A stretch of DNA of 63,858 bases, the filler included. It is 7 parts of 7 records of this genome, joined end to end, with 100 filler letters (N's around TTAATTAATTAA, not from the genome) between each part and the next. Parts side by side here need not be neighbours in the genome. Positions count along the whole stretch, not along the records: positions 31,180 to 38,889 come from SRR31147125_16715; 6 more parts are not named here. One strand, 5' to 3'. The notes beneath the pieces are model-generated. The model saw only the letters and a list, made by a program, of their open reading frames with translations, was not told the origin of the DNA and did no database searches. Shown here one piece after another: positions 8,656 through 46,263 of this stretch; within the stretch, counting starts at the first letter, position 1; every line of letters starts with the position of its first letter. Position numbers and translations under genes: made by a program.

Positions 8656-9888
8656 TCAGTTACCACCGTCTATCGCTTTTTGGTAGATGGCCATCAATTT
8701 TTGGTAGTGCCGTTCGGGATTATATACGGTTTCAATTTTTTTGCGCGCCGCGCGCCCCATCTCGAGAATTGTATCATTTTTCATATCCAACATAGATTCC
8801 ATTCTGGCGTGCAATGCATCAACGGTGCCATGTTCGAACAAGAACCCATCTGTACCATCATCTATCATTTCGGGTATGCCGCCGATTCGAGCACCAATCA
8901 CAGGTTTTCCGTAAGCCATCGCCTCCAAAACAGATAAAGGTGCATTTTCATACCATTCGGAAGGAACCACGACAGCTAATGCCTTTCGGGTAATATCGGA
9001 TAGCGCAGGGCCGGAGAGATAACCGGAAAATGATATACGCCTGTCTACCGCTGCAATTTTTCGTAGTTCGCCCTCCAACGGGCCTTCACCGGCGATTTTT
9101 AGTCGAACATGATCGGAATTGAGACGCGAAAAAGCTTTGATTAGGGTCGATATACCTTTTTCGTTGGAGAGCCTTCCAAGGTAAAGAAAGTACCTGCCAG
9201 GCGTAAAATCAGGGCTGAAATCGTCAATCGAAATAAAATTCGGTATGTATTCAATACGCTCGGCAGGCCAACCAAATTCAACCATTTTTAATTTCAAGAA
9301 AAGGCTTGGCGAAATGAAATATGTGACATTTTTTTCATATTTTTTGAGTAAAAAGTTAAAATAGGTTTCAAGGGCATAGAGCGTCGAAGCAATGAAGCTA
9401 TTCTTGTGGCAACGATTAAACATCGCATTATAGTAGGAGTGTTTATGGCAGTCCTCGCAAATCCTGCCATGATGCATCATTTTGTAGTTGGGACATATGA
9501 TTTTGTAATCGTGCAGGGTCATTACGACGGGGATACCGTATTCCCGAAGCCCATCGAGTACGGAAGTTGTCAACCGACCGTATATATTATGGGCATGCGC
9601 AACATCAATGTGATAGCTCTTCAACATATTTTTTAGGCAGTGTTTGGATTCAAACGAATAAAAAAGCCTTGTCAGTGTTTTAAGTCCTTGCCTATCAAAT
9701 GCAACCCTATCGGTTTGAATTTCCTGCGGGAAAAATCTGTCGAATTCGGTCGAAACGTTCTTTCGGTGCCTTCCAGAGAATGGAATGAATCGAATCCCCT
9801 TCCTATTTATTAGATCCCTTTCTGAAAAAAAGACGCTTTCCGCGCCGCCTCTAAGATAATAGAAATTATTGATGCCTAATATATTCAT
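8656..9888 (-). CDS. Glycosyltransferase family 4
   Basis: RGGAE, HAHNIY, TLHDY, GRLSNEKG, PSEWYENAPLSVLEAMAYG. Confidence 0.93.
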   Translation of the reverse strand: MNILGINNFYYLRGGAESVFFSERDLINRKGIRFIPFSGRHRKNVSTEFDRFFPQEIQTDRVAFDRQGLKTLTRLFYSFESKHCLKNMLKSYHIDVAHAHNIYGRLTTSVLDGLREYGIPVVMTLHDYKIICPNYKMMHHGRICEDCHKHSYYNAMFNRCHKNSFIASTLYALETYFNFLLKKYEKNVTYFISPSLFLKLKMVEFGWPAERIEYIPNFISIDDFSPDFTPGRYFLYLGRLSNEKGISTLIKAFSRLNSDHVRLKIAGEGPLEGELRKIAAVDRRISFSGYLSGPALSDITRKALAVVVPSEWYENAPLSVLEAMAYGKPVIGARIGGIPEMIDDGTDGFLFEHGTVDALHARMESMLDMKNDTILEMGRAARKKIETVYNPERHYQKLMAIYQKAIDGGN

Positions 9889-9969
9889 TTATCCACAATC
9901 TCTTTTTAACTTTTACCTCGTTTTTTCAATACACATAGGAGGTTACAAGTTTGCGTCAATAATATATTT

Positions 9970-11048
9970 TCAAATACTTCCATATTTTTTAAGCGCTAAC
10001 TTCATATCTAAAAAATTGATGCACAGCTTGTCAAGAATTGACTCAATAACTTCTTCCGAAATATTTCCCTCTTCTTCCAAACGCGATAAAGCATCGCCAC
10101 GACTAAGCTGCCCATCTCTTACCAAAAAACTTAGTCCCTCGTCTTTGTCATTATAACCAAGTAACTTTTTGTATAAGAACAATTTCAAAAGAGCAATCTC
10201 ACAATCCCCTCTCCAAGTAGACTTTGCCCCAGGGGTAATTTTCCAGCATAGTCCATTTTTTATAGTATCGACTATCTCATCCTCTTTCCATCTTATGTAA
10301 TTGAAAAATGGCAATATTTCGGTAATACCATCGCTATTTTTATTTCCTTTATAAAAAACACAGTAAAATTCTTTAAATTGTGTAAGCATGCAATCAGCAT
10401 TCATAATCCACGATGGATTCATCAAAATCTCATTCAAATAACCTAAGACAAACAATCCTGTATTTAGCTTAGTGGATGGCCTTATTGACATAATATTTCT
10501 TTTGAAGCTATTTGAATCAAGACGATTATTCCCTGAAATATACACTGGTATTTTATTTATTTTTACAAAATCAGGGATCATGGTTTTCATCCCTAATCGA
10601 CATCCGGTGCATAAAAGTCCAACCATCGATGCAGAAGGCCTCCGTATAAAAGACTTTAAATGATGGTTGACACATTTTTCAAGATAGTTGTTTTTTTTAA
10701 TAACTAATTTAACGCTTAACGCGGAAACCATTTTCTTTATATTTTCTTTTGTTTGCTCAGGAACGAACCCATTGTCAACGAATAATGCAAGCACTCTTAG
10801 CTTCAAGATTCGAACCAAATAATATAATAGGAAACTGCTATCCCGCCCTCCACTTAGGGCAAGTACACAGTCATAATTCGGGTTATTGTATTTTGTTTTA
10901 TTATTAATAGTTAAAATTTTTTTCTTAGAGACCTTTTACCCAAGTAATTTCCAATTGTGGTGGCGTTACAATAATTGCATATTCCTTTTTCGTCGAATTT
11001 TATTCCGGGGTAGTTATTTGGCAAGATACATTTCGTGCATCGCATCAT
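9970..11048 (-). CDS. N-acetyl sugar amidotransferase / PP-loop protein (WbpG-like), indel near 10915
   Basis: Hand translation from ATG 11048 gives MMRCTKCILP...GICNYC; after an A-run indel it continues YDCVLALSGGRDSS (PP-loop) into the 282-aa ORF. Confidence 0.8.
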
Positions 11049-11136
11049 TTGGCTTCTCCTTTTTAATTATTTTATAAAAACATATTTAAGCAAATTAAAA
11101 AAAATATATCCATATAACGCAATTTGAAATATAAAA

Positions 11137-12452
11137 TTAAGCCATTTCAAATCGATAATTTAATCGTGTATAAACAACAGCCATTGCATAAAAATATAAA
11201 ACTGGCATTGTATCTCCCCAAAAGGTAGTCCAGTGATATGCAAAAGCAAAAAATAACATTGAAAAAGAGAAACAAACTGACCCGAAACTGAACGCTTTCC
11301 AATAAGTATCTCTTTCTTTTTTATAAAGTTTTATACACATTTTAGTAAAAATTACCAACATCGCAAAAAAAGCCAAAACACCAGCGATGCCATATTCCAT
11401 AGCAATCCGGTTCATTGGCGTCCAACCATACAAAATATCAAAGTTTTCATATTTTTCTTTAAAACGTTTACGCTCTTTTGCGGAATCTAAAAAAGAAGGA
11501 GTCGTGGCACCAGGGCCGATTCCAAAAATGACCTGAAGAAAACCGGACTCTGAAAGCTTTTCAATTACTCGCTGAGAAGTAGCGATTCTACCAAAAGATC
11601 GCCCGTAACCATCAACACCTGAGTTGTATCTCTCTGCATATTCGAAAGCATAGGTTATGTCTATTTTACCACCGATTTCATTGTTAGGGCTTAGCGATTT
11701 ATTAAAATAGAGGATAGATGCTGATACAACAATAATCGTAATTGTACACGCTGTGAACATCGCGAATTTTTTATAAAAAGCCGCACTATTTCCTTTAGCA
11801 TAAAGGTAGTAAAAAATTAGCATAAATTGTACTGGATAAAGAAATAAAACCGCCCTTTTTGCACCAACTATTGATAATATTATATATCCAAAACCAATCA
11901 CCAAATACACGAATTTTTGTTTATGTATAAAATAGTACGAAGCTAAATAGAATATAAATGTCACAGGTAGTGTTGTGGCAATCGAACCATCATGAATAGC
12001 ATAGGCGCCTGCAGTCCTCTCGTCTATCCCATATCTAATGAATTTTAATCCAACAATTGGAAACTGCGCCACTAATAGTGCGACAATTAGCAAGTTAAAA
12101 ATTTTTATGGCATTATCGTCCGGATCCATTATAATTAATGCAAGATAAAAAAGTAGTACCGGAACAAAAGTCTCAAACTAAAAATTGACCTTTGCGCCGG
12201 AAGTTCATTTATCATCATGGAAAGCAATGTGATAAATATGAACAACAAAACTATTTGCCATAAATGAGGTATAGGAAAGAATTTCCTAGAACGAGAAAGG
12301 ATCGAAGAAACCAAAAAAATGTAAATTAAAAGCTCTGAAATAATTGAAAAATATCTTGGTACTCCAAAACTAATAATCATTCCACCAAAAAGTGCAATAA
12401 ATAAGATTAGAAAGACTGGTAAACTTCGCAGCATGTTAAAATTTTTCCGCAA
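11137..12452 (-). CDS. Polytopic membrane protein, Wzy/O-antigen ligase-like (indel near 12130-12150)
   Basis: About 10 hydrophobic segments; large loop with FGIGPG followed by EYGIAG; lies within a glycosyltransferase cluster. Confidence 0.65.
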
Positions 12453-12473
12453 ATTTAATTGACTAAGTTAGCA

Positions 12474-13412
12474 CTACTTCCGATGACATATTTTAAATAA
12501 TAATTCTCTAAATATCATCTTTGACAAATAAATATTAACAAGAGGTTTTGAGTAAACTAGACGGTCGGTATCATCGCCACTACTACTACTATAATTATTC
12601 TCTCCATCGATACTATGATGTATTATTGCTGAAGTGATGTCATCGATAATACTATTTTTTGCATCATTCTTAACATATGAAGGCAATTCATCGGCCATTT
12701 TCGAATCATAGAAAATTGTCCTATGTTTATTTTCCATTGCATTACTTTCAAGTGATTTTAAATGATTATATGTATTTTCATACTTATCTATATCTTTATC
12801 ATATGTATGATACTTTGCAGACAGATTACCGAAAAGCATATGATGTCTTTTTAACCAAAATTCTTCCATTTTTTTTATACGGAATCGATAAATAATCGCA
12901 AATATACCTAAGAGTCTGGGCCGGTTTTGTGGCTAGACAATGATATTCAACAGACTTCCATTGCTTTACTAATGAGAAAAAAGCCTGTGATATTTTATCC
13001 AAGCTCGATCCCACCCCACTAATTGGCCTCTTTTATACCGTGAAATAGCAAATTCTATCGGGCTTTTCCAAATCAATAACACTTTACTTAATATTCCATG
13101 TTTTATTAAACATTTGTGTTGATAATCAATCCAAAAAGGATCTTTGCTTGAGTCTACAATCGTAGTGATATTTTCATACCGATTAAAAATAGAGACATAT
13201 AAATTTGATGCGCCTTTTTCTTTCACTTCGCTCCAAAGAGTGCAATTTCCGTCACCACAACCACAAGGCGGATTAATATGATGCAATTTTAATGGCTTAA
13301 ATAGAAATTGAATTTCTCCCATTGAAAATGAGGATTCCGTGTTCCCGATCATCATATCCAACATTGATGACCCGCTATATGCAGTTCCGGCAATGAAAAC
13401 GACCTGTTTCAT
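12474..13412 (-). CDS. Sulfotransferase-family protein (split by two indels)
   Basis: N-terminal FIAGTAYSGSSMLD (PAPS-binding loop-like); IVDSSKDP; ICDYLSIPY in the next fragment. Confidence 0.7.
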
Positions 13413-18847: not shown

Positions 18848-20287
18848 TTACTGACTCAACTCTAATTTTTTTATTTTGTTTTCCAGCCACTTCAATGCTG
18901 ATTCCTCGTTTTGCTCGATAGCCATATTTATAATCAGCCTAGAATAGCCCAATAAATCATTGGAACCAATTCTCAATAGCCGCGACTTTTCTACTGCCTC
19001 AATAATTTCGAATTGTTTGGCTCTGTTAATAAATGGTATATAAAAATTTGATATATGCTGTGGGTAAAGTTCAGCTTGAGCACTACCTGAACTATATTGT
19101 GTCGTTTGCATTCTCCCAATCCTCGAGTTCATTAAAAAAGCAACATATATCGGAGATTCTGAGGTGATTCGTAGAATATTCACATGATTGCTTGCTAGTG
19201 CTTTCCGTTCGGACTGATAACATGCAGTTCTTCCAATATTAGCACCTGTTGTATAAGTAAGAATATCGCCTTGGAGAATTCTCGACTGAGGGTTATTTTC
19301 CCAATTTATTACTTTAGTATTATCAAAGTTTCCTTCGTCTAAACCATATTCTAGTATATGCTTGCTAGTAACAACATCAATTGATTCTTTACTATCATAC
19401 TTTGGCTGCACACCACGTCTATTAAACAGTTCAATTGAATCTATTCTCGTAAGATATTCACTGTTACTCTTTAGATGCTCAACTAATTCTGAATACTTCG
19501 GATGAAAATGTTCAGCATCGAACCTATTTGCGACAACTAAGCATTTATAGTTTTCTAGATATGAAAGCTGATCTTTCTTATCTAGGAGTGATAACTTTAA
19601 TTCTTTATAAAGAATAGCTTCAGCTTCTTTATATATCTGTATGGATGATGACATCAACTCTCGTGACTTATTATATAGCCATTTAATTTTATATTGGAAA
19701 TCACTTGAGAAAAGTGGTACTCGTATGAACTTCAACGCTTCCAATGTCAGATGTGGTTGTCCTGTTTGACTTGCTGTCCGTAAGAGAAGTTGCTTTCCTT
19801 TATTTGAATGGAGAAACATCCATAAATAGTAGCGTTTAATCCCGAGTAATCTCGAAGTGCTAAGTATAATGATATCTCTAGAAACTGAGTATTCATTATA
19901 TTCATTTGTTAGTAGTGCTACCTTGGCTAAGGAGTTGCCTCCCTTTGCAATGATGATATCTCCTGGGTGACAAAGAGCTATAGTCGTTTGATTTTCCACT
20001 AATATTTGTCTAGGAATAAAAGCAGTTTCATCAGTGATATGAAGTAAGCCATTTTGAATTTCATTTACTCGAAGAAATGGTATACCTTCTCCATAAAAAT
20101 TATAATACTGTACTAAGGATGGATAAAAAGCACTACAATCAAATTCAGCATTAGCATCTTTAATGCTTATCCTCGCAATCTTTGATAGGCTCTTTTCTAA
20201 CTCTAAATATTCAGGCTGATAGTATTCAGCATCAATACGAAAAACAATTTTGTCTAGTTTTGATTTTTCAATAATTGAATACTGCAT
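18848..20287 (-). CDS. Restriction-modification specificity (S) subunit
   Basis: Two TRD-like halves, each preceded by RIDAEYY or RFDAEHF; GDIIIAK and GDILTY; TGQPHL and GSAQAEL. Confidence 0.88.
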   Translation of the reverse strand: MQYSIIEKSKLDKIVFRIDAEYYQPEYLELEKSLSKIARISIKDANAEFDCSAFYPSLVQYYNFYGEGIPFLRVNEIQNGLLHITDETAFIPRQILVENQTTIALCHPGDIIIAKGGNSLAKVALLTNEYNEYSVSRDIIILSTSRLLGIKRYYLWMFLHSNKGKQLLLRTASQTGQPHLTLEALKFIRVPLFSSDFQYKIKWLYNKSRELMSSSIQIYKEAEAILYKELKLSLLDKKDQLSYLENYKCLVVANRFDAEHFHPKYSELVEHLKSNSEYLTRIDSIELFNRRGVQPKYDSKESIDVVTSKHILEYGLDEGNFDNTKVINWENNPQSRILQGDILTYTTGANIGRTACYQSERKALASNHVNILRITSESPIYVAFLMNSRIGRMQTTQYSSGSAQAELYPQHISNFYIPFINRAKQFEIIEAVEKSRLLRIGSNDLLGYSRLIINMAIEQNEESALKWLENKIKKLELSQ

Positions 20288-20289
20288 AA

Positions 20290-22346
20290 TTACATGCTAC
20301 TCCAAAAAGAAAGTTTTTCATTCTTTGCCCATTCAATAAATACTTCGGAAATTCCAGCAGGCAATTCTCCTTCATGAGAATGTAGATCATGCTTAATTAC
20401 TAGATGACCGTTCTTATCTAATTTGAATTGACCATTCTCGTCTTGAACATATATATAATTTCCAGAGTTATCTTTCCCGCCCTCTTGCGAAATAGCAAAG
20501 AAAATCGGATAATCAGCGACTTTTGGGCATAGTGATTCATGCCATTTCTGCACGATTAGCACACTAGTTTTTGTCCCCGTATGAGGTTTGAAAGTATTTT
20601 TGTGAAGGCCAATTACAGCTAAAATTCGTCCATGTTCAGAAATGAATTCTCGAATATACTTATCGGTTGTATTATTAAATCGTCCTTGAGGTAAAACTAT
20701 GGCCATGCGGCCACCTGGTTTTAGAAAATCGAAATTCCTCTCAATAAAGAGAATATCTCGACCCACTTTATTTTGGGCGCTCTTTCCATCAGCTTTGAAG
20801 CCTAATTCATATTGATGTAATAACCTACTTTCTTTTATATCCCCTGCAAAAGGTGGGTTTGCCATTACAATATCAAAATTGAATTTTTTGTTTGAGTTTG
20901 TATCAACTCTTAATTTTTCTAATCGTTCAAAGCCTTTTCCGTAAGTATTAATCCATTTTTTATCATTTTCAGATTTATCCTTCCAACGCTCAAATTCCAG
21001 TGTATTTAAATGAAGTACATTAGTCTCTCCATCACCTGCTATCAAGTTTAGGGTTCTAGCCACTCGAACCGTTTTCTCATCAAAATCAATCCCAAATATT
21101 TTTAATACATATTGTTTATCATTTTCAGAGATCTCACTATTAGTAAAAGTTGGCCTGTTAATTTGAATATTGTATGGACAGGAAAGCCACAACTGCCTGA
21201 TGCTGTATCAATCATATATTCGCCACGTATAGGATTTAGCATTTGAACGCACATATCAATTACATGTCTGGGCGTAAAAAACTGTCCTTTTTCACCTTTT
21301 GCTGATTTGTTGACTAAATACTCAAAAGCCTCATCGACTACCAATAAGTTTGAGTTAAATAATTTCACATCTTGCAAACTTGATATACAAATGGATAAGT
21401 GACTATCAGATAATTCAAATAAACTGCCATCAGAAAAAATGCCTCCCCATTGACTTTTTGCTGCATTAAAAAGCTTCTGGATCTTCGTTTTAAGTTCTGA
21501 TTCTGTTTGACCAGAATTTCTGAACTCTAGTACACGAAATTTAGAATCATCTAAATCAGCTAAAGAAGTTTTGATATTCTTATAATTAGCCCTTTCTTCA
21601 TCAGATAGATTCTGGTCGAGAAAAAATTCAATATTCGCTTTATCTTTTCTGCTAGAAAATTCATCGAACAATTTAGTAAAAATTAACTTAAAAACTTCTT
21701 CGAAGACATCCACACCAGCATTTGCTAAAACTTCATCCTCCATTTCTAAAATTAAGTCCTTCAGCGATTTCCTTTCATTTGCGATCTTGTCCTTTACAAT
21801 AAGATCTTTAAAAGTGAAGCGTTCACTTAAAATATCCTTTAGACTTTGATTCTCTTTTGGAATATCAGTAATATCTTCAAAATAATTTGGATCCTTTCGA
21901 TGGTAATGTGATATTTGCTGTCCATTAGTCCAAACTCCGATCGGAGCGCCTGTTGCATTACAATATGATCGCAGTTGATCTTTTCCATCTTTCAGCTTTG
22001 GCTTTTTCAGCTCGATAACTATGTACGGTGTATCAGGACGGTGTTTATCAAAAATTACAATATCAGCACTCTTTTTTTCACGTCCAAAAGTAACCGGGTA
22101 TTCAAACTGTATTCGTGATTTTAAATATCTATATTGATTAATTAGTCGATTTGCATACAGTTGGCGTACAATTTCTTCTGGTTTTAATTGGATTTTCTTT
22201 TCTCTAATCACGCATATTACAAATGGCTTGTTTTTTTCAGATATTGAAACTGTTTTAAGAAAGTTTGATATTTCAACTTCTGAAAAAAGAGAAAGGTTAT
22301 GATTGGTGTCTTTTAGTATCGCTAATAGTAATTGTTTTTTATCCAT
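20290..22346 (-). CDS. Fused restriction endonuclease (HSDR_N-type) / N6-adenine methyltransferase (indel near 21150)
   Basis: PEEIVRQ..ADIVIF..IELKKP nuclease motif; GQFFTPR; DTASGSCGF (motif I); NPPF (motif IV). Confidence 0.88.
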
Positions 22347-31179: not shown

Positions 31180-31208
31180 CGTGGGTTCGAATCCCACCCT
31201 CTCCGCCA
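31180..31208 (+). tRNA. 3' end of tRNA-Ser (T-arm, acceptor strand, CCA); probable att site
   Basis: GTGGGTTCGAATCCCAC T-arm; CCTCTCC-G-CCA with discriminator G; the 5' part lies beyond the contig edge. Confidence 0.8.
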
Positions 31209-31298
31209 ATAATAACGGGTAGTTAGCTTGGATGCTGCTGCCCTTTTTTTGTCCGTAAAATTTTCTTGAGGTAGCTTTGAAGGTATCTATTTACGTTT

Positions 31299-31901
31299 CT
31301 AAGTCGAGATATCCACTTCTTCACTAATGGTTAGTGCTATTGTTTTGATGGTGTGCATAATTTCAAGGTTAACTACGGCTGTGTTGTCTCTTAACTCGAT
31401 AAGATTTAAGGTAATCAGAGTCTCAATGTAGGTCTCAATGCTAGGGAATCTTTTTGGCCATTCGATTCCGTTTTTCTTTTTAGCGGTAGTACTAAATGCG
31501 CGTGGCAATGGTCTATATTCTCTGCCACTAAAATAAACATCTACATCGTCAATATATGGTTCTATGATGTGTTTTAAGCTTTTTCTATACTCACAAATAA
31601 GACTGTTATATTCCGCCCAAGCACGGTCCTCATTTAGCCTTTGAGTTATTTCTTCTTTATTTTTTAATATGTTAAAAAAGTCAATAAACTCTTTTTCTTC
31701 TAGTTTTTCATATATTTCTATACATAGTTCAGTATTTTTGTTTTTTTCTTTTTCACCAAATAAATGTTTTATTGTTTTAGTTTTTCTTTTTTTTGTTCTT
31801 ATTTTATTGATTTTGTCCAAAAAATCTCCTGTTATTGCTATGGAAAAAAAGAGTAATATTAATATGAAAACATAAAAAATAAATCTAGCTAAATTTAGCA
31901 A
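31299..31901 (-). CDS. Prophage cargo: hypothetical protein with N-terminal TM helix
   Basis: 200-aa AT-rich ORF with a hydrophobic N-terminus. Confidence 0.55.
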   Translation of the reverse strand: MLNLARFIFYVFILILLFFSIAITGDFLDKINKIRTKKRKTKTIKHLFGEKEKNKNTELCIEIYEKLEEKEFIDFFNILKNKEEITQRLNEDRAWAEYNSLICEYRKSLKHIIEPYIDDVDVYFSGREYRPLPRAFSTTAKKKNGIEWPKRFPSIETYIETLITLNLIELRDNTAVVNLEIMHTIKTIALTISEEVDIST

Positions 31902-32505
31902 AAACCCCCTTCAAAAAAATTTCTTAAAAATCTTGGGGACTGCATTTCTTCCCATGTATTTACAGGAGAGACTTTATCTATTCCGGCTATTTTCCCATAA
32001 AACTCAATATTAGGCTTTTCTTCTCTGTTGTGTAGAATTAATATTTCAAAGGAAAAACTTTCCTTTTTCAAAAATGACTTTTTCAAACTCTATCTTGTTT
32101 TCACTTTTCTTTTTTGGTAATAATTTTTCTTTTAAATATTTAGATATAGTAGTTATTTCGTTTGATATTTTTATTATTCTTCCATTGTTGACTACAATTC
32201 CCCAGTTCATGCTTTTTATCGAAACTGTTTTGTAGTATATCTTTATCTCCAATATTTTTAATTCTTACATTGATTACTTTAAGGTTAAGATTTTTATCTT
32301 TTATGTCTTCATTTTTAAATAAAATATTTAAATCTTTCACTTCCTTATATAAATCAAAGACATTTGACTCGTTTATAATCTCTAGCAAGATATTTGGTGC
32401 TGGTTTGTGAACGTAGGTGTATAGACCAGATAGTCCGAAAATAATCGTTAGGAATACACCGACGCTTCCCCAGTTAAATATTTTATATATTTTTTCAAAC
32501 TTCAT
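31895..32505 (-). CDS. Prophage cargo: membrane-anchored hypothetical protein (several indels)
   Basis: ORF fragments 32140-32505, 32046-32252 and 31895-32086 chain across A runs; N-terminal TM helix; SD GGAG. Confidence 0.45.
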
Positions 32506-32624
32506 TTTCACTCCATAGTTATATCTATTCAATAAAGACGAATTATTATTAAATAGATACACTCAATGGTTTTTGAATTAGCACAAATAAATTTTCAAGA
32601 TTATAAAATATATGTCTGTTTTCG

Positions 32625-33038
32625 TTACCGAAGAAACTTTATCTCTTTTTCAGCATTGCAAAACATGTCTTCTGCTATCTCTAACTCTATCTTTCTTTCT
32701 CTGTGCGCTGCTTTTTTTCGTTTGTCTCTATAAGTTCTGCATTTGTCTCTAAAATTTTCTTTTGCCTGTTGAATGCAGTGTCGTCTTTCTATGCTTCCTT
32801 TGTCGTAGTTTTGGCAAACCGACTCCCGGACAATTTCCTTTTTTATGACCTCAGATCCTTTTCGGGTTGTGGTTACATCGTATGAAATGCGGAGCTTTTG
32901 TTTTATTTCAGGGCATTTGTAATAGATTTTTCTTCCCTGGGAGTCGTATTTGACGCAGGTTTCGGCTTGTAGTGGTCTAGGAAATAGCAGAATGGTGAGC
33001 AGTGTCAGGCTGTAAAGTGTTGTTGTGATCGTCTTCAA
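32625..33038 (-). CDS. Prophage cargo: small basic secreted Cys-containing protein
   Basis: Signal peptide ending LQA; 6 Cys; SD GGAGGGGG before TTG. Confidence 0.65.
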   Translation of the reverse strand: MKTITTTLYSLTLLTILLFPRPLQAETCVKYDSQGRKIYYKCPEIKQKLRISYDVTTTRKGSEVIKKEIVRESVCQNYDKGSIERRHCIQQAKENFRDKCRTYRDKRKKAAHRERKIELEIAEDMFCNAEKEIKFLR

Positions 33039-33068
33039 TTTTCCCCCTCCAGATTCTTTTGTCTTTGA

Positions 33069-33380
33069 TTATTCCTCTTTTGGTTTTGAGTGTTCCAATA
33101 TTGTCAATATTGCTGATCTCACTTTTTCGTCTGCTTCTTCACATTTTCTTATCAGCTTATCGAGGTCTTGATCAGATCTGCTTAACTCTTCTTTTAGCAG
33201 CCAATTAAGATTTACGTTTTCGTTTATTCCCCATTCTACGATTAACGGCAAAATAGTTTTTCTCTTTAGTCTATTGCTTAAGTCTGCTGCTGAAATATTA
33301 AGAATTTCAGCTACTTCCTTTTTGCTTTTAACGTTTTTTGTCTTTTTAATTCGTTCGATGACCTTCTCAAAATTAATCAT
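33069..33380 (-). CDS. Phage CI-like HTH repressor
   Basis: KKEVAEILNISAADLSNRLKR HTH; VNLNWLL motif; divergent from the phage genes. Confidence 0.85.
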   Translation of the reverse strand: MINFEKVIERIKKTKNVKSKKEVAEILNISAADLSNRLKRKTILPLIVEWGINENVNLNWLLKEELSRSDQDLDKLIRKCEEADEKVRSAILTILEHSKPKEE

Positions 33381-33395
33381 TTAGTAAATTTTCCT

Positions 33396-33423
33396 TTGAC
33401 AAATTCACGTATTCGTTTATTTT
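33396..33423 (+). promoter_or_regulatory. Candidate sigma70 promoter of the phage rightward operon
   Basis: TTGACA-N16-TATTTT in the divergent gap. Confidence 0.4.
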
Positions 33424-33510
33424 TAAATCAGCTGTCCCCCAACGGATGTAAAGAAAAGCAAACAAAAGCAATAAAACAATGCAAAAGCGTATCACATTAC
33501 GGACTTTTTT

Positions 33511-33735
33511 ATGACCACAAATAAATCGATAAAGGTAGTGGAGAGTGACATTTACAACGCAAAAGAGCTCTCTTCCATCGTCTTTCGTTGTTCCTATCAC
33601 ACCTTCATGACCGAAATTAAATGCTTGGACGGTTTCCCTGTGCCTATTGGGAATCCAAATAGAAAGGGTGTTTTGCATTGGGTTAAAGACGAAGTTCTTG
33701 AATGGCGTAACGAAAATTATAGGAGACCACATTGA
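33511..33735 (+). CDS. AlpA/excisionase-like winged-HTH protein
   Basis: 74 aa; GFPVPI...WVKDEVLEW pattern; first gene divergent from the repressor. Confidence 0.7.
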   Translation: MTTNKSIKVVESDIYNAKELSSIVFRCSYHTFMTEIKCLDGFPVPIGNPNRKGVLHWVKDEVLEWRNENYRRPH

Positions 33736-34049
33736 ACAATCTGACGCATGTAGCTTTTCATTCACTGGTTGATGCTGGTTTGATCTCGTTTGTTTATTTG
33801 GATCCTGGTTCTGAAATTGGCGCTGATTTTAATTGCTGCGATACCTGCTTTTGTGAATTTGAGGATCATGACCATAGGTGTCTGGTCGCTCATGTTTATC
33901 TCTCAGGATTTAAGACACAAGTCTTCCGTTGTTCGACATGCTTTTCTGATGATTCTTCCTGGAGGCGGGTCGGGGCTGCCGGCGCAGCCGGTGGCACCGA
34001 TTTGTCTCCAGAGTGCGTATGTAACACCGCACTTTTGTCTCATTTTTGA
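33732..34049 (+). CDS. Hypothetical Zn-ribbon-like protein
   Basis: CDTC...CSTC; start overlaps the previous stop; 3' end overlaps the hairpin cluster. Confidence 0.35.
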   Translation: MNNLTHVAFHSLVDAGLISFVYLDPGSEIGADFNCCDTCFCEFEDHDHRCLVAHVYLSGFKTQVFRCSTCFSDDSSWRRVGAAGAAGGTDLSPECVCNTALLSHF

Positions 34050-34052
34050 GAC
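33970..34052 (+). other. Hairpin cluster, candidate rolling-circle origin
   Basis: GC-rich stem at 33970-34000; AGTGCG-TATGTAACAC-CGCACT; GTCTCA-TTTT-TGAGAC; immediately upstream of rep. Confidence 0.5.
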
Positions 34053-34079
34053 TTTTTGACTTTTTGTTATGGCTTGCTA

Positions 34080-35195
34080 ATGATTTTTCCTGATTGGATC
34101 ACATTGATTTTTGATGACTATGAGGGCCCTGAAATCTCAGGTGGCCAAGTTCAATTTGTTCATCCGAATGGTGTGATTGAAAAGTGCGTTGATCGTCGTT
34201 TGTGGCTTGAAGGTTCCTATGAATCAAAAATCTCTGTTCGTGGGTGGAAAGGTCATCTTGAAATATCCGGCAATCCGACAAAGTTCATTCAGGGACATAA
34301 TCTTTTCGGATGCTCTGATCTTCGCTACTTGCTCAGAAAATTCATTGATCGGGTTCTGTCGTTGATCGGCATGGACAAAATAAACACCGAGAAGGTTGTT
34401 CGGTTGCTCTTTGAAGGAAATGCTCGTGTCACCCAGATTCACCTAACGGGAATGTACGATTGCGGAAAAACAAATACGGAGGTTTCTCAGTTTTTAAAAG
34501 CATTGCCTTTGTACCTCTATAAAGACCGTCAGAAGTCTCATGATCGCTATGACTCCACATATTACATCGGTGAAAAGTCACGACGGTTAAGGACAAAAAT
34601 TTATAACAAACTGACAGAAATAAACGAATCCAAGCACGGAGCCTTAAAATTTAATCCAGATATTAATAACGCTCTTTGTAATTGGGTTAAAAATAAAATT
34701 CGAATTGAGTTCGAACTAAAATCTTTATTTTTGAAAGATTATCTTTATTTAAATGGAAACATTGAAAAATGTTCAATACCAACAAAAGAATTATTAACAG
34801 TTCTCAGAACTAAATCAAAAAATATAGATTCTTTATCATTATTAAAAACTTGGTACGAAAAGGACATTATAAGGAGAGTATTTATGACTCTACTAAACAA
34901 GAAACTTAAATTACCTGAAAATTTTTCTTATAACGAATCCAACCTGGTTGAACTTCCACGTTCAGTACGTGGAACTTACTCAATGTGGTCTCAAGGACTT
35001 GATGTGAAGACACATCTTTCTAAAGCTAGTTTATATCGTCATCGTAATTTGATTTTTGAATCTATTGGCGTTGATATTTTTCAGCCTTGTGCATTTTCTC
35101 AACGAAAGAACGTTGTCGTTCCAATGTTCAAAATTATCGAAGCTGGCCCGGCTTCTATTCCTGAGTGGGCCTATACCTACGGCCTAGTGGCCTAA
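34080..35195 (+). CDS. gII: Rolling-circle replication initiator, phage gene II/X family
   Basis: PDWIT; EGSYESKI; ISGNPTKFIQGHNLFG; KIYNK; IRIEFEL; SKASLYRHR..GVDI. Confidence 0.9.
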   Translation: MIFPDWITLIFDDYEGPEISGGQVQFVHPNGVIEKCVDRRLWLEGSYESKISVRGWKGHLEISGNPTKFIQGHNLFGCSDLRYLLRKFIDRVLSLIGMDKINTEKVVRLLFEGNARVTQIHLTGMYDCGKTNTEVSQFLKALPLYLYKDRQKSHDRYDSTYYIGEKSRRLRTKIYNKLTEINESKHGALKFNPDINNALCNWVKNKIRIEFELKSLFLKDYLYLNGNIEKCSIPTKELLTVLRTKSKNIDSLSLLKTWYEKDIIRRVFMTLLNKKLKLPENFSYNESNLVELPRSVRGTYSMWSQGLDVKTHLSKASLYRHRNLIFESIGVDIFQPCAFSQRKNVVVPMFKIIEAGPASIPEWAYTYGLVA

Positions 35196-35220
35196 ATACT
35201 GACAAAAGAGAGGTTTAATC

Positions 35221-35535
35221 ATGGCAGACACTATTTGTATTTTGGAAAATTGCGAAGTTTTAAGCACAAACGTGAACGTCTGGGAAAAATCAAAAGACGA
35301 CGTTCGAACCTTTATGACAGCTTTCTGTCATATCGAAGGTGATGAAGAAGGGCGTGAAAAATCATCTGTATTTGAACTGAACTGTGAAGATCCGGTTGCC
35401 TTTGAGGATCTCAAAAAGATGCGCAGGAAAGGGCCTACTAGTCTTGTTGCTGCCATGCGTCAGTTCAAAGATAACAAGCGTTATATCTATCTCGATACCG
35501 TACAAAGCTACTTCAAACCCGGTAAGACTGCTTAA
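35221..35535 (+). CDS. Probable ssDNA-binding protein (gene V position)
   Basis: 104 aa, beta-rich; SD GAGG; sits between rep and the minor coat genes. Confidence 0.6.
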   Translation: MADTICILENCEVLSTNVNVWEKSKDDVRTFMTAFCHIEGDEEGREKSSVFELNCEDPVAFEDLKKMRRKGPTSLVAAMRQFKDNKRYIYLDTVQSYFKPGKTA

Positions 35536-35546
35536 GGAATTTAACG

Positions 35547-35645
35547 ATGGATGCTGACCAGTTCGATGCACTTATGACGATCCTTTACATTATCGGGCTG
35601 GTTATCTGCTTTGCCTTGGGGGCTGTGCACGGTCACCAACGGTAG
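35547..35645 (+). CDS. gVII: Minor coat protein pVII homologue (32 aa, absent from the ORF track)
   Basis: MDADQFDALMTILYIIGLVICFALGAVHGHQR; M13 pVII ends CFALGIIAGGQR; SD AAGGA. Confidence 0.85.
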   Translation: MDADQFDALMTILYIIGLVICFALGAVHGHQR

Positions 35646-35659
35646 GAAAGGGGGTCTCG

Positions 35660-35779
35660 ATGGATACGACATCTGCAGAGTTTATCTTATCAACCCTAAT
35701 CGCTGCCTGGGCTCTTGGTTATTGCTTCGGAAAAGGGTTTCTTGAGTTCAGGCGTTTATTCGACATTTCATCAAGTTAA
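35660..35779 (+). CDS. gIX: Minor coat protein pIX homologue (39 aa, absent from the ORF track)
   Basis: MDTTSAEFILSTLIAAWALGYCFGKGFLEFRRLFDISSS; M13 pIX ends LGWCLRSGITYFTRLMETSS. Confidence 0.8.
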   Translation: MDTTSAEFILSTLIAAWALGYCFGKGFLEFRRLFDISSS

Positions 35780-35794
35780 GAAAGGAAAAGATCA

Positions 35795-36019
35795 ATGAAA
35801 ACCCGTATTTTTACACTGTTTCTGCTTGTCGCTATGACTTTTTCTGCAACGTCTGCTTTTGCTGTCTGGACCACCCCTCCTGAAGCAGTTGAGGCCTTTG
35901 CCGATATCGTAACTGGTATCGGTGCAATGGTCGCTCTTGGGTGGACTGTTGCCAATTCTTCGACTTTGGCCACTGCTGGTTTGCGCCTGTTTAAGAAGTT
36001 CGTTAACAGGGCTATCTAG
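35795..36019 (+). CDS. gVIII: Major coat protein pVIII
   Basis: 23-aa signal peptide ending AFA; 51-aa mature helix ending GLRLFKKFVNRAI (M13: GIKLFKKFTSKAS). Confidence 0.92.
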   Translation: MKTRIFTLFLLVAMTFSATSAFAVWTTPPEAVEAFADIVTGIGAMVALGWTVANSSTLATAGLRLFKKFVNRAI

Positions 36020-36038
36020 TTTTTTGCTCAATCCGTTC

Positions 36039-36075
36039 AAAAGGGGCTTGGTCTTTCGGCCTAGCCCCTTTTTTT
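36039..36075 (+). terminator. Terminator after the major coat gene
   Basis: AAAAGGGGCT...AGCCCCTTTTTTT; same position as the Ff central terminator. Confidence 0.85.
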
Positions 36076-36089
36076 ATGGTGATACCATC

Positions 36090-37679
36090 ATGAGAGTTTT
36101 TGCTTTTTTGTTCCTTTGTTTATTCACGCTTGTTCCTTTTTCATATGCTGAAAACTGGGTCAATATTCAGTTTGATGTTAAATGGTATAAGTATGATGTA
36201 GACAATTTGGCTTATCGTTATGAGGCTAGTTCTGGTTGTAGTTCTGCGGACTATTACAATGGCAGAACTGTACTTTTTAATCCTTGCAGTTACGGAGCGA
36301 CCGGGATTTGTGTAGGGATCCAATCTGTTGAGCAGGATCCATCATGTAATACTGGTCGTGGTCCTGTTGATACGGATTACTATCCTGCTAGTTATTGTGG
36401 ATATGATCCTTGCCCATTAGAACCTTGTGAAAATCAGACTCGCTGGCAGGAGTATACTGGCGAGCCTAATCTTGACGGTTATGGTTGTTACGAATATGCC
36501 TGTAGTAACAATTATCGCGCGTTGAGCATGTGCGACATCAATGAGCATCCCACCCAGGGAATTTGCACTAACGGTGTGCAGGATGACGGTGAAGAAGGTA
36601 TTGACTGCGGTGGTCCTTGTTCCGCTGCATGTGAACCTAAATGTCCACCTGGTAGCACAAGTGCTGAAGTCTCCGGTGACGGATATACTTCTGTTGAGTG
36701 TTTCCGCTCTATCCCTCCAAATTCTGCCGGTGTTTGTCCTGATGGATTTGAACGTCTCTTAGATTCCGATACTGCTCAAATTTATTGTTATGAAGACATC
36801 GATCCAGTTTTGTCACGTCCTGATTTTGAGCCTGAACCGTTGGATGAAGTTCAACATGAGGCTGTTTATACGGATGAGGATATCGCTGCAACTGATGTTC
36901 AGCGTGAATATTCAACCAATGACCAGGGGGAACAGGTAGAAACGATTACGGCAACTCGTGTTGTCGACAACCATGATGGAACTCAAACAGTAGAAAAAAC
37001 CGTTACCACCACGACAACCCATGCTGATGGCTCTCAGACTTCTGTTTTTGAAGATTCAACCACGATTAGCAACTCTGATGGACAGTCATCAACCCAGACA
37101 ACGACAACAACAACTGTTACAGACTCAAATGGTGATCTTGTTTCGGAGAGTAGTGGCACGCAAACAACTTCTTCGGATTCTGATTATACTCCTCATGGTC
37201 CTCAGGCAGTTGAGGTTGATGTTGATACGGATGGTATTGAAAACAAGCTAAACACAACAAATACAATACTTAATCAGAGTAATTCACTTCTTTCTGACAT
37301 CAATGATTCACTCAATGGAGAAATTACAGAAGAGTCTGATTCTTACGGGGATTCTCTCGATGAAGAATCAGATGGTTTGCTCGATGAACTGGCCTCATCT
37401 CAGCAAGATTTGATCGATTCAAGTTCTTCAAATGTTGATTTTGATACCCTGCCATTTTCAGAATCCGTCACTGATGAAATAAAGCAGATCCTTCCTGAGA
37501 GCGTAAGCACTTGCAGGGACCTTCCCATTGAATTTGATCTTTTTGATGTGCATCACAGTTATTACATTGACTGTGATCCGTTCCAAAATTTGAAAGATAT
37601 TTTAGGCTGGTTTTTCTATGTACTGACGGCTATCGGTCTTTTTTACTCTGTCACAAAACCTGTAGGAGAAAATAAATAA
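36090..37679 (+). CDS. gIII: Adsorption protein pIII homologue, Cys-rich
   Basis: Signal peptide; 18-Cys ectodomain; Thr/Ser/Asp-rich stalk; C-terminal YIDCDPFQNLKDILGWFFYVLT (M13: SIDCDKINLFRGVFAFLLYVAT). Confidence 0.85.
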   Translation: MRVFAFLFLCLFTLVPFSYAENWVNIQFDVKWYKYDVDNLAYRYEASSGCSSADYYNGRTVLFNPCSYGATGICVGIQSVEQDPSCNTGRGPVDTDYYPASYCGYDPCPLEPCENQTRWQEYTGEPNLDGYGCYEYACSNNYRALSMCDINEHPTQGICTNGVQDDGEEGIDCGGPCSAACEPKCPPGSTSAEVSGDGYTSVECFRSIPPNSAGVCPDGFERLLDSDTAQIYCYEDIDPVLSRPDFEPEPLDEVQHEAVYTDEDIAATDVQREYSTNDQGEQVETITATRVVDNHDGTQTVEKTVTTTTTHADGSQTSVFEDSTTISNSDGQSSTQTTTTTTVTDSNGDLVSESSGTQTTSSDSDYTPHGPQAVEVDVDTDGIENKLNTTNTILNQSNSLLSDINDSLNGEITEESDSYGDSLDEESDGLLDELASSQQDLIDSSSSNVDFDTLPFSESVTDEIKQILPESVSTCRDLPIEFDLFDVHHSYYIDCDPFQNLKDILGWFFYVLTAIGLFYSVTKPVGENK

Positions 37680-38017
37680 TGGTTGTTGCTGCTGCTGCTA
37701 TTCCTTGGTTGGCTGCTGCTTTAGGTGGTTTATTCAGTGGCCTTGTCTCTTGGTTTGCAAAAAGATTGACTAAAAAGATTGCTGCTATTTCGGCCTTCAC
37801 TGTTGGTGTTTTTGCCTTATCAGCCCTTTATTTCAGCGCCATGTATGGGCTTTATTCCTTGTTCGATTATGTTTCTCCGCCTCTTCTTGCTGATGCTTTA
37901 AGTCTTGTCATGCCATCAAACACGGCTGGTTGTGTCACTGCTGTTGCTACGGCCAGAACTGCCAGATGGGTTTATGTTTGGAACTATCGATTCATTGAAA
38001 CTACGGCTTTGGTGTGA
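37679..38017 (+). CDS. gVI: Minor coat protein pVI homologue
   Basis: 112-aa hydrophobic protein between III and I; begins AIPWLAAALGGLF..KK. Confidence 0.8.
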   Translation: MVVAAAAIPWLAAALGGLFSGLVSWFAKRLTKKIAAISAFTVGVFALSALYFSAMYGLYSLFDYVSPPLLADALSLVMPSNTAGCVTAVATARTARWVYVWNYRFIETTALV

Positions 38018-38020
38018 GAA

Positions 38021-38889
38021 ATGGCTGAGTTTGTTGTCACCGGCAAGAAAGGTGCTGGAAAGGGCTTAGTTACTGTTGGAAAAATTCGAGAGTACCTTTT
38101 TCAAAATCGAATCGTTGCAACAAATCATGATTTAAAGCTTCACAATCTTATAGGCCCACATTCAAAACAATGTCGCGTCATTCGTGTTCCAGACAAACCT
38201 AAAATTCATGATCTGCTAATGATCGGTGTCGGAAATCCAACGATCGATTATCAAATGATCAGCCGTAAAGACAAAGATGGGAACCATTCTTATTGGGATT
38301 ATGAATTTGCCGACGATCAGCCACGATTCAACGAGGATAAGAACGGTCTTCTTGCTTTAGATGAGCTTGGCTCCTGGATGAATACAAGAACATTTTCAGA
38401 TAAAGACCGTAAGCCTGTCCTTGATTGGTTGATTCACGCTCGTAAATATGGTTGGGACGTGATCTATGAAGTGCAAGACCTTTCCATGATTGATAAGCAG
38501 GTAAGAGAGGGATTTGCTGAGCATGTTGTTTATTGTCGCCGTTTGGATCGTATGCCATTGCCACTGATCGGCGCTGTTCTTCCAATAAAAATGCCAAAGG
38601 TCCATTTGGGGATTGTCAAATATGGCACCTCTGTTAATGCTCCAAATGTCGATAAATGGGTGATTCGGGGAACAGATTGCTACTCGGGCTATAACACGCT
38701 TCAAAAGTTTTCAGACCTCTACCCACATGGTGGTTTTACATATCTTCCTCCCTTTATGACTCACGGAAAATATAAACCTGCAAAGAATTGGAAAAATAGG
38801 ATGCGTATTACAAAAATTATAGGTAGGCGCTATTCACGGATTATTTCTTTTGCTTGTGGTTTCTTCTTGTCGGCTTTTGCCTTTGCCTG
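38021..38889 (+). CDS. gI: Morphogenesis ATPase pI (Zot family), 3'-truncated
   Basis: VTGKKGAGK; RVPDKP; NEDKNGLLALDE; HARKYGWD; AEHVVYCRRLDR, which closely match M13 pI as recalled. Confidence 0.95.
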
Positions 38890-45723: not shown

Positions 45724-46263
45724 TTGGATCGACGTATAAAATATACCAAAGGCGTTATAAAAGAGGCTTTGCTGGAACTGCTAAACAACAAAACTTTGGA
45801 CAAAATAACTGTTAAAGAAATCTGTCAGGATGCTGATGTAAATAGGGCTACTTTTTATAGGCATTATAAAGACATCTACGATTTATTCCAACAGATTGAA
45901 AAAGATATTATTGAAGAAATAACGTTAGATTCCTCTAGAATTCTAGATATTACAAAGTTGCTTGAATTTATATATGACCTCCAAGGTTTTTATAAAGAAT
46001 TTTTCAAAAGAAATTTAGATTCTGAAAACATCAAAAATGAAATTCAGAAGGGCTATAATAAAATTGTTAAGTTCTCTGCCTCAAACGACACTTACAACCC
46101 TGAGTTATTCAGCTATCTTTTTGATTATTATGTACATGGTTTCAACGGATTATTAAGAGATTGGGTTAACAATGGTTGTGTTGAACCCATAGATGAACTG
46201 TATGAGGTGATTCTTCATATTACTAAAATACAGTTTGGAGATTCCTATACAGAACTGCTATAA
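45724..46263 (+). CDS. TetR/AcrR-family regulator
   Basis: ITVKEICQDADVNRATFYRHY. Confidence 0.9.
   Translation: MDRRIKYTKGVIKEALLELLNNKTLDKITVKEICQDADVNRATFYRHYKDIYDLFQQIEKDIIEEITLDSSRILDITKLLEFIYDLQGFYKEFFKRNLDSENIKNEIQKGYNKIVKFSASNDTYNPELFSYLFDYYVHGFNGLLRDWVNNGCVEPIDELYEVILHITKIQFGDSYTELL

Follow-up and report, generated by a model that had tools for sequence, protein, structure and literature searches.

A likely temperate, Ff-like inovirus beside a tRNA-Ser gene, compared with Ff, Pf and phiRSM phages

Three groups of described filamentous phages come closest to the locus considered here. The Ff phages (M13, fd and f1, genus Inovirus), like If1 and I2-2/IKe, carry their genes in the order II(X)-V-VII-IX-VIII-terminator-III-VI-I. 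The Ralstonia phages phiRSM integrate at the 3' end of tRNA-Ser(UCG), the phage attachment site (attP) lying between recombinase and repressor (PMC3816273). In Pf4 of Pseudomonas aeruginosa, the XisF4 protein is reported to turn on the replication gene, to repress pf4r and to promote excision (PMC7549136). Besides, integrase-bearing inovirus prophages located at tRNA genes were catalogued at scale in a 2019 inovirus survey. The locus in question belongs to a DNA stretch of 63,858 nucleotides (nt), hereafter the window, in which seven contigs are chained by N44-TTAATTAATTAA-N44 spacers, the neighbouring contigs being tied to the phage contig by binning alone. The phage region coincides with exactly one contig, from 31180 to 38889 (7710 base pairs, bp), which likely represents the left ~70% of a temperate filamentous phage that belongs to the Ff-like Inoviridae and is inserted a short distance downstream of a tRNA-Ser gene.

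Read from left to right, this contig shows the 3' end of a tRNA-Ser gene, an AT-rich cargo region, a CI-type repressor gene divergent from a winged-helix gene, and then the same II(X)-V-VII-IX-VIII-terminator-III-VI-I order as the Ff phages, the right contig edge cutting gene I. All genes from the repressor to pI are open and have plausible ribosome sites. The guanine-plus-cytosine (GC) content amounts to 31.3% at 31209-33050 versus 40.8% in the rest of the contig, in agreement with the AT-rich cargo announced by an earlier reading made from the letters alone (the sequence-only reading). Two relatives serve as the main points of comparison: L001, a complete 12.6-kb prophage in a Geopsychrobacteraceae metagenome-assembled genome (MAG), and L004, an IMG/VR contig, the pI proteins of both being 65% identical to the one of the window. 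The features are the following, with lengths of proteins in amino acids (aa), open reading frames as ORFs and helix-turn-helix as HTH.

31180-31208, plus strand: 3' end of tRNA-Ser with T-arm, acceptor strand and CCA, truncated at the contig edge and taken as host DNA from a reading of the sequence
31209-31267, plus strand: tRNA flank in which a terminator-like hairpin and a T-run occur, probably host DNA according to flank comparison
31268-31288, plus strand: candidate left attachment (attL) core, GAGGTAGCTTTGAAGG followed by TATCT, with the left prophage border at about 31284, from block comparison
31299-32562, minus strand: cargo that can be exchanged, with two ORFs, one of 200 aa at 31299-31901 and one of 140 aa at 32140-32562, with weak family matches and no assignable function
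32625-33038, minus strand: secreted-looking, Cys-containing protein of 137 aa with no assignable function (phrog_7381 at 1e-6)
33069-33380, minus strand: CI-type repressor of 103 aa, HTH domain only (PF07022 4e-7; phrog_4 2e-8)
33381-33510, no strand: divergent control region, a 130-bp gap (promoter scan, repeat search)
33511-33735, plus strand: winged-helix regulator of 74 aa, MerR/excisionase class by fold (AF2/Foldseek), first gene of the rightward operon
33959-34011, plus strand: GC-rich hairpin of 24 bp in the 320-nt gap before gene II (single-stranded DNA fold)
34056-35195, plus strand: gene II, rolling-circle initiator (PF05144 2e-30; PF05155 2e-14; phrog_702 2e-51)
35221-35535, plus strand: OB-fold single-stranded DNA-binding protein at the gene V position, by fold only
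35547-35645, plus strand: pVII (PF19978 3e-8)
35660-35779, plus strand: pIX candidate of 39 aa with a hydrophobic core, by homology to L001
35795-36019, plus strand: pVIII, major coat protein (PF19199 6e-10; phrog_1646 7e-14)
36039-36075, plus strand: intrinsic terminator between VIII and III (hairpin and T-run)
36090-37679, plus strand: pIII, adsorption protein, by L001 homology and sequence features
37679-38017, plus strand: pVI (PF17537 9e-14; phrog_1944 1e-20)
38021-38889, plus strand: pI, assembly ATPase, first 289 of ~383 residues (PF05707, phrog_1675), the contig ending in the membrane segment

The Ff gene order is regarded as real because the profile matches (II, VII, VIII, VI and I), the fold or homology support for the other genes (V, IX and III) and the terminator agree, and the order put forward by the sequence-only reading is thereby upheld by Pfam and PHROG profiles, homology to L001, fold and the terminator call. 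Several traits of the Ff-like branch are found in the contig, namely a pI/Zot-type ATPase, a pII with a pX domain, and the small coat proteins VII, IX, VIII, VI and III in Ff order. The pI protein matches PF05707 at 1e-21 and phrog_1675 ('protein I of M13') at 2e-110, and it is 45% identical to M13 pI (BLASTP 7e-93) and 65-67% identical to the pI of L001, L004 and two database proteins, P0001 and P0002. As for pII, it shares 25% identity with M13 pII (BLASTP 3e-8) and about 30% with proteins from 25 of 82 relative loci, L001 not being among them, and a probable in-frame pX start, again as in Ff phages, lies at 34884 (Met277, preceded by AAGGAG, giving 103 aa). Among the smaller proteins, pVII is 44% identical to M13 pVII (BLASTP 3e-4) and 66% to that of L001, pVI is 55% identical to that of L004 and 44-45% to that of L001 (BLASTP against M13 2e-3), and pVIII is 62-63% identical to that of L001 (BLASTP against M13 E 0.03). 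The pIX candidate, which has no Pfam or PHROG match, aligns with L001 at 60% identity over 30 aa (4e-8) and with M13 pIX at 37% over 30 aa (E 0.02). The terminator that follows pVIII has a z-score of -4.8, none of 200 shuffled sequences folding equally well.

The pIII protein displays a signal peptide, a Cys-rich N-terminal part, 21 cysteines, Thr/Ser-rich linkers and a C-terminal membrane anchor, and is 31-32% identical to L001 pIII over ~445 aa (30-32% across L001 and L004); it has no Pfam or PHROG match, and an Atlas search with its N-terminus returned nothing usable. At the gene V position, the AlphaFold2 (AF2) model, with a predicted local distance difference test score (pLDDT) of 83.5, finds single-stranded DNA-binding proteins as its best folds (probability ~1.0, TM-score 0.6, E 5e-3), which supports a pV-like, DNA-binding role for the modelled protein. 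At the level of sequence, this protein has no Pfam or PHROG match, no BLASTP match to M13 pV, no phmmer match among Protein Data Bank sequences, and no relative among viral contigs or in the 82 relative loci, and three relatives of the same size were found in 1.84 billion representatives. The expectation that each coat and assembly protein would resemble its M13 counterpart therefore holds in part: by BLASTP it is solid for pI and pII, weak for pVII and pVI and marginal for pIX and pVIII, while the pIII C-terminus is not significant (E 0.22). Judged from alignments, clear M13 likeness is thus limited to pI and pII. In the proposed mechanism, pII and pX would perform rolling-circle replication, the OB-fold protein would coat the plus strand, and virions would be extruded through pI and pIV without lysis.

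Despite the common gene order, the phage of the window differs from the Ff phages in several respects. DNA likeness extends over only 2-3% of the length, pIII and the protein at the pV position have no detectable M13 homology, and the contig has in addition a repressor, cargo, a junction with the chromosome and a small regulator of the HTH type. Besides, the structured non-coding region stands before gene II and after the regulator, whereas it follows gene IV in Ff phages. The hairpin in this region (-30.5 kcal/mol, with z-scores of -7.2 for the plus and -5.0 for the minus strand) could belong to a packaging signal or an origin element. In the same area, an ORF of 105 aa (33732-34049) is probably not a gene, as it matches no family and no relative locus.

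Placement within the genus Inovirus, i.e., among Ff phages proper, is contradicted by the blastn comparison, the pI identity of 45% and the tree position outside the M13 clade. Aligned by blastn with phage records, no more than 3% of the contig is covered, with identities of 69-73%, and no close phage is revealed; the best pI identity to isolates is 45-46%, so that no near-identity to a described inovirus, which the sequence-only reading had named as the finding that would speak against it, was encountered. In a large protein database, the two nearest pI proteins among the matches listed are 66-67% identical, and the others, mostly bearing Gammaproteobacteria names, reach 49% at most. A pI tree was built from 48 chosen rows, comprising 44 of 120 listed matches together with the window, L001, L004 and M13. 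It groups the window with P0001, P0002, L001 and L004 in a five-row clade on a long stem (support 100/99), outside a 41-row clade that contains M13 and I2-2. A single-protein pI scan of viral contigs found nothing, and a scan of metagenomes found one 45% relative only, L003. Taken together, the phage is a new, fairly divergent member of a phage group already catalogued in metagenome surveys. Elsewhere in the window, a pI-like tblastn match of L001 pI at 46033-46164 (41% over 44 aa) was dismissed as spurious, since it falls inside an ORF that looks TetR-type by eye.

The layout of L001 and L004 is that of the window, with cargo, repressor, small HTH gene, replication gene and virion genes. In L001, an attachment (att) copy is followed by RelA/SpoT-like and ParA-like cargo, an HTH_3 repressor, a small HTH gene, a Rep_trans initiator, the virion genes, pI, a pIV secretin (PF00263 2e-39), an integrase-like ORF and tRNA-Ser(CGA); in the 391-aa integrase-like ORF, only the SAM-like N-domains matched Pfam (2e-5). 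In L004, the genes pIII-pVI-pI-pIV are followed by a ParE/HTH pair, a minus-strand P4-type tyrosine integrase (PF00589), Abi_alpha-like and AbiU/AIPR cargo on the minus strand, the repressor (minus) and the small HTH gene (plus). Compared with the window, L001 thus differs by its Rep_trans initiator, its HTH_3 repressor, its RelA/SpoT-like and ParA-like cargo and its integration at a tRNA 3' end in the opposite orientation, and L004 by its AbiU/AIPR cargo and its ParE pair, while the pII, the OB-fold protein and the cargo of the window match neither relative. At the sequence level, the modules are mosaic, the virion genes being shared with L001 and L004. The non-enteric setting suggested by the sequence-only reading is in line with these relatives, which are non-enteric.

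The same reading proposed an Ff-like virion module joined to a tRNA-integrating lysogeny module. Such a combination is not unusual: 34 of 80 IMG/VR loci with an Ff-like pI encode a PF00589 tyrosine integrase. This count is a lower bound because 17 of 134 candidate ORFs were left out: after filters, 206 candidates were retained, of which 134 had at least 250 aa and 117 were scanned, and the 17 others are mostly shorter than 320 aa and all but one come from loci of which other ORFs were scanned. A tRNA scan of 60 of the 80 loci found a tRNA in one. As a separate observation, 27 IMG/VR loci (e.g., L047 9705-12040, L051 9421-11702 and L059 9721-12002) carry a recurring pair downstream of pIV, made of an ORF of ~430 aa without Pfam family and then a recombinase with Int_N and Phage_integrase domains.

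Between cargo and replication genes, the sequence-only reading saw a switch made of a repressor and an AlpA-like gene. The repressor part is confirmed: the 103-aa protein scores 30.7 bits against PF07022 (cut-off 22), is 36% identical to the repressor of L004, and has no match to a C-terminal S24 peptidase domain, which places it outside the self-cleaving LexA/CI class. In the gap between the two divergent genes lies the best promoter-like site of the contig (33396-33423, TTGACA-16-TATTTT, rightward), which is overlapped by one copy of a 19-nt direct repeat (33403-33421), the other copy, identical at 17 of 19 positions, standing inside the repressor gene (33210-33228); these repeats are possible operator sites, judging from their position. 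The AlpA label fares less well, with a modest fold match only. The AF2 model of the 74-aa protein (pLDDT 77) shows a beta-alpha-alpha-beta-beta-alpha arrangement, as in MerR-type winged helices, and Foldseek retrieves the RdfS excisionase, lambda gpNu1 and BldC with probabilities of 0.87-0.96 and TM-scores of 0.53-0.73. Against this class assignment stand the E values of these fold matches, all at least 0.06, and the lack of a match to Pfam Phage_AlpA or HTH_17 at E <= 0.1. Counterparts are found in L001 (67% identical), L004 (the two spanning 62-67%) and two genomes, G405 and G407, discussed below, and three homologs were retrieved from 5.8 billion proteins, one of them named 'uncultured Desulfuromonas sp.' and none having a precomputed Pfam domain.

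This gene diverges from a short repressor gene and stands a little upstream of the replication gene, a position which is that of XisF4 relative to Pf4r in Pf4, and the same switch logic is therefore proposed here. The repressor would keep the rightward operon off, and the 74-aa MerR-type protein may, by analogy with XisF4, switch on gene II and aid excision. More generally, the Pf4 and Pf5 prophages of P. aeruginosa resemble the contig in having, just before the replication gene, a small HTH gene of the MerR superfamily that diverges from a short repressor gene, and in occupying a tRNA locus, tyrosine integrases being used at tRNA genes (PMC7549136, PMC7379572). The likeness described is one of layout, and Pf phages differ in that the virion module of the contig is Ff-like and its relatives encode their own secretin. 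Pf phages are not known to have a secretin.

The cargo stretch holds three ORFs, all on the minus strand. The proteins of 200 and 140 aa show weak matches only, to Abi_alpha (1e-3) and phrog_29747 (7e-8); PADLOC found no match in the cargo of the window, an Atlas search with the 200-aa protein gave nothing usable (scores below 0.8), and no match was found among the 82 relative loci. Hypervariable cargo regions were described in Vibrio inovirus prophages (PMC12715192). The accessory genes of the relatives are often defence or toxin modules, such as the HipA, AbiJ, NERD, Pycsar-type TIR, GmrSD and PIN_8 proteins encoded in the cargo of L006, L007, L010, L015, L017, L019, L021, L063 and L070, and the window cargo matches none of them.

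At the left end, the 29-nt piece that opens the contig was read by the sequence-only reading as the 3' end of tRNA-Ser, which is confirmed by its T-arm, acceptor strand and CCA, and by the five places of a comparison genome, G001, that match it with at most 3 mismatches, all five being tRNA-Ser 3' ends (GGA, GCT, TGA, CGA) or an att copy. ARAGORN and Rfam scans of the window gave no matches; ARAGORN makes no tRNA call at this piece because the gene is cut. Past the tRNA, 52 of 88 aligned columns of the flank are identical to the arm at the tRNA-Ser locus of G001, the ACGGGTAGTTAGCT block of 31209-31267 is common to G405 and G407, and comparable hairpins stand 3' of tRNA-Ser in L101 and L102, although the flank hairpin of the window folds no better than shuffled sequence. 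The candidate att block that follows is present in a single copy in the contig (31268-31283; 0.0 expected per shuffled contig), and occurs both at the occupied junctions of G405 and G407 and at the phage-free site of G001. At the occupied junctions, it is followed by cargo, repressor and a homolog of the 74-aa HTH protein in the same orientation as in the window. The common junction sequence reads GAGGTAGCT-YTS-AAGG and then TAGCTTTTG, and in G001 the first part is directly followed by the flank proper to that genome. In L004, CGGTAGCTCTCACGGTAGCTTTTG abuts the start of the integrase gene (5573-5592). In addition, a variant of the phage found in a public run (X1, see below) and the window part ways at 31285.

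From these block comparisons, the att site is probably the GGTAGCT-N4-AGG block located about 60 nt past the CCA end of tRNA-Ser, and not the tRNA 3' end itself; under such a downstream site, 31180-31283 would be host DNA. The integrase would recombine the phage attP, next to the integrase gene, with a host attB made of GGTAGCT-N4-AGG about 60 nt downstream of tRNA-Ser, leaving the cargo beside the tRNA and the integrase at the far end. With attP beside the integrase and attB some 60 nt past the tRNA, the orientation of tRNA and cargo in the window finds an explanation. The tRNA-integrating lysogeny module of the sequence-only reading is thus retained as a lysogeny module lying beside tRNA-Ser, while the duplicated tRNA 3' end that it expected as att is probably not the one used.

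Several points weigh against this downstream site. No second candidate att copy exists elsewhere in the contig, which has no right end, or in the window; the 'empty' site of G001 may have arisen by deletion and not be a pristine attB; in G407, the remnant and the shared flank stand 15 kb apart, with ordinary host genes in between; the flank likeness of 52 in 88 columns is modest, and the whole 105-nt flank has no match in any sampled genome. Finally, L001, whose att repeats are proven, uses the tRNA 3' end itself, in the opposite orientation.

This last point raises the alternative of an integration into the tRNA-Ser 3' end, in the style of phiRSM or L001, the 29-nt piece then being an att core duplicated at the far end. 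L001 indeed has copies of at least 21 nt of the tRNA-Ser(CGA) 3' end at both ends, next to its integrase, and window positions 31196-31208, once reverse-complemented, give the phiRSM core TGGCGGAGAGGGT; phiRSM1 and phiRSM3 insert at tRNA-Ser(UCG), and their 13-nt core is identical to the end of the tRNA piece (PMC3816273). However, in both L001 and L051 the tRNA borders the integrase and is on the opposite strand, whereas the tRNA piece of the window is on the strand of the phage genes and adjoins the cargo; the 75 nt past the tRNA are common to the sites of G001, G405 and G407, including the phage-free G001 site; and L004 has the GGTAGCT block, but no tRNA-like core, beside its integrase. As to phiRSM, its core is reversed and lies between recombinase ORF14 and repressor ORF15, and its recombinase is a small serine recombinase (PMC3816273), whereas the relatives of the window phage encode tyrosine integrases and the junction in the contig apparently lies about 60 nt past the tRNA. 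In the contig itself, there is no recombinase and the core stands in forward orientation. Integration into the tRNA 3' end is thus considered unlikely, and the downstream block is retained.

Around these sites, the tRNA-Ser(CGA) locus of G407 and G405 has an intact tRNA, then a terminator arm and, after ~170 nt, a second but incomplete copy of the tRNA 3' end, with a window-like arm behind it. In G407, ordinary host genes come directly after the homolog of the small HTH gene, and the element is therefore a prophage remnant. The remnants of G407 (L100 289-3019) and G405 (L098, about 9100-13400) keep only cargo, including an SPFH protein, the repressor and the small HTH gene. Further copies of arm and att block lie away from tRNA-Ser(CGA), at a second site of G405 (L097 5322-5342) and in G001 (contig C20, ~435367-435452), and in regions L097 and L099 the queries used recovered no phage gene. 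In L001, two displaced tRNA-Ser 3'-end copies stand 193 nt apart at the cargo end of the prophage (866-1101), an arrangement that suggests repeated integrations at this tRNA-Ser.

Regarding the host, the contig was binned with contigs of a Fusobacteriaceae organism, and the evidence leans towards a Thermodesulfobacteriota bacterium whose contig was mis-binned, mis-binning into the Fusobacteriaceae bin being likely and some probability being left to hosts outside both groups. The nearest phages are found in Desulfuromonadia, through the MAG of L001 and the homolog of the 74-aa protein named from an uncultured Desulfuromonas. The exact 29-mer tRNA end is common in the phylum of G001, where 383 of 401 sampled genomes match it at E <= 0.001, many at 100%; so many genomes carry the tRNA piece without a mismatch that it does not suffice, by itself, to tell the host. 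Blocks of the flank are also shared with the tRNA-Ser flanks of G001, G405, G407, G284 and G222.

This assignment meets objections of its own. The flank search was made in genomes from the phylum of G001, the pI clade occurs in only 1 of the 401 genomes from the phylum of G001, the cargo GC (31%) equals that of the bin, and the ClpB of the bin is 78% identical to that of a Fusobacteriaceae MAG and 68-70% to those of Ilyobacter, Leptotrichia and Sebaldella. In the opposite view, the host is the Fusobacteriaceae organism of the bin and the phage clade spans two phyla. In support of it, the contig shares its bin with contigs that encode a fusobacterial ClpB, and the cargo resembles the bin not only in GC but also in tetranucleotide composition (r 0.85-0.87 to the core contigs c1, c3, c4 and c6). 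Fusobacteria are diderm bacteria, and a secretin-dependent phage is therefore possible in such a lineage. However, composition does not discriminate: M13 correlates with the largest contig of the bin better (r 0.86) than does the phage core (0.82), so that composition cannot assign the host. In addition, the phage core, at 41% GC, exceeds the four low-GC core contigs (31-35%, against 38.6% for contig 2), flank and relatives point to Thermodesulfobacteriota, and the bin holds a 50% GC outlier. The latter, contig 7 (57581-63858), has tetranucleotide correlations of 0.31-0.39 to the four core contigs and of 0.53 at most, and encodes a ShyC/MepM-like endopeptidase and a PAS sensor kinase; in view of this composition it is probably foreign, which would make the bin contaminated.

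A fusobacterial host is accordingly unlikely, and the fuller proposal that the bin is right, with an Ff-like, secretin-dependent temperate inovirus in Fusobacteriaceae and sister phages (pI 65-67%) in Desulfuromonadia, is quite doubtful. Were it true, one young inovirus clade would extend across two phyla, with a swappable pIII N-terminus and cargo as means of host switching. In the literature, viewed in part, no association between inoviruses and Fusobacteria was found in print, and the string 'Fusobacteri' occurs 0 times in the body text and two supplement files of the 2019 survey, other files of which may list Fusobacteria or Desulfuromonadales hosts. If the Thermodesulfobacteriota host is correct, the case calls for caution in binning, a short AT-rich inovirus contig having been put in a fusobacterial bin by a composition indistinguishable from that of M13.

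The right end of the phage can be approached through run X1, which holds 62% of the sampled words of the contig and may be the sample it came from. One X1 contig, 10,672 bp long and at depth 22.9, matches the window collinearly, breaks off at the same tRNA piece (31181) and extends 3,365 bp past 38889. Judging from the relatives and the length of this contig, the missing ~3.4 kb would contain the pI C-terminus, a pIV secretin and an inward-reading tyrosine integrase at the right end. The sequence-only reading had placed integrase and pIV beyond the contig end, which gains support from the layout of the closest relatives and from this extra length. On the other side, no integrase or pIV of the phage itself was found on the contig or anywhere in the window, and the far end is known by length only. 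A second run, X2, gives no cover of the phage contig, which is not evidence of absence.

X1 also reveals that the phage varies. In the abundant variant (depth ~23), 981 other bases replace 31286-32624, i.e., the two cargo ORFs, and 299 other bases replace 36076-36419, i.e., the start and N-terminal part of pIII, while the window's own cargo appears in short contigs only, at a depth of ~4. From these replaced stretches and the low depth of the window cargo, it follows that two phage variants differing by cassettes coexist. The cargo slot and the pIII N-terminus would thus act as exchangeable cassettes. The 137-aa gene is kept in both variants but diverged, the X1 differences being listed for 32655-33056.

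These data bear on the state of the phage. Cargo-repressor-small HTH remnants do exist beside tRNA-Ser(CGA) in G407 and G405, and the right end of the window phage is not seen, so a decaying, non-functional remnant of the same kind has to be weighed; but each gene from repressor to pI is open with plausible ribosome sites, the further 3.4 kb of the X1 contig are long enough for pIV and an integrase, and two variants at depths of ~23 and ~4 suggest an active population, which makes a remnant improbable. A free circular replicative form or virion DNA, with the tRNA-like piece as part of attP, would account for contig ends that are both assembly breaks, the X1 contig stopping likewise at the tRNA piece, and L004 shows that the non-integrated arrangement of a relative does get assembled. 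Nevertheless, the attP of L004 has neither tRNA piece nor arm, three genomes have chromosomal flanks homologous to the arm, and the break occurs at the tRNA piece because many other X1 contigs cover it; a free circle is accordingly very unlikely. Finally, XerCD/dif-type integration as in CTXphi, the tRNA being merely nearby, is hardly credible: host XerCD is used by many inoviruses (PMC12715192), and the contig has no integrase, but a dif-like pattern (a consensus that may not be that of the host) has 0 matches in the window at <=3 mismatches, the relaxed dif core has 0 matches in the contig, and both closest relatives encode integrases.

Considered as an integrated phage, the contig is a well-preserved mosaic addition to a small, deep Ff-like branch from anaerobic sediment-type bacteria. 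In this branch, a single virion module occurs together with two or more different replication modules, with two repressor types and with two integration modules, and the latter use one tRNA-Ser locus in opposite orientations. The exchange of cargo and of the receptor-binding end of pIII between variants of one sample offers a natural view of cargo change and possibly of host-range change. Mildly new are the two integration modules with one virion module, the att block downstream of the tRNA and the two cassette polymorphisms in one sample. For filamentous phages, earlier publications already describe the targeting of tRNA-Ser (PMC3816273) as well as a switch of repressor and excisionase (PMC7549136), and nothing here alters the known biology of inoviruses.

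Apart from the phage, contig 3 of the window (18848-22346) partially matches MAD5 (1e-32) and MAD2 (1e-39), two proteins of the methylation-associated defence system, in both cases far below the family cut-offs, and may, from these matches, be a restriction-modification-like defence locus.

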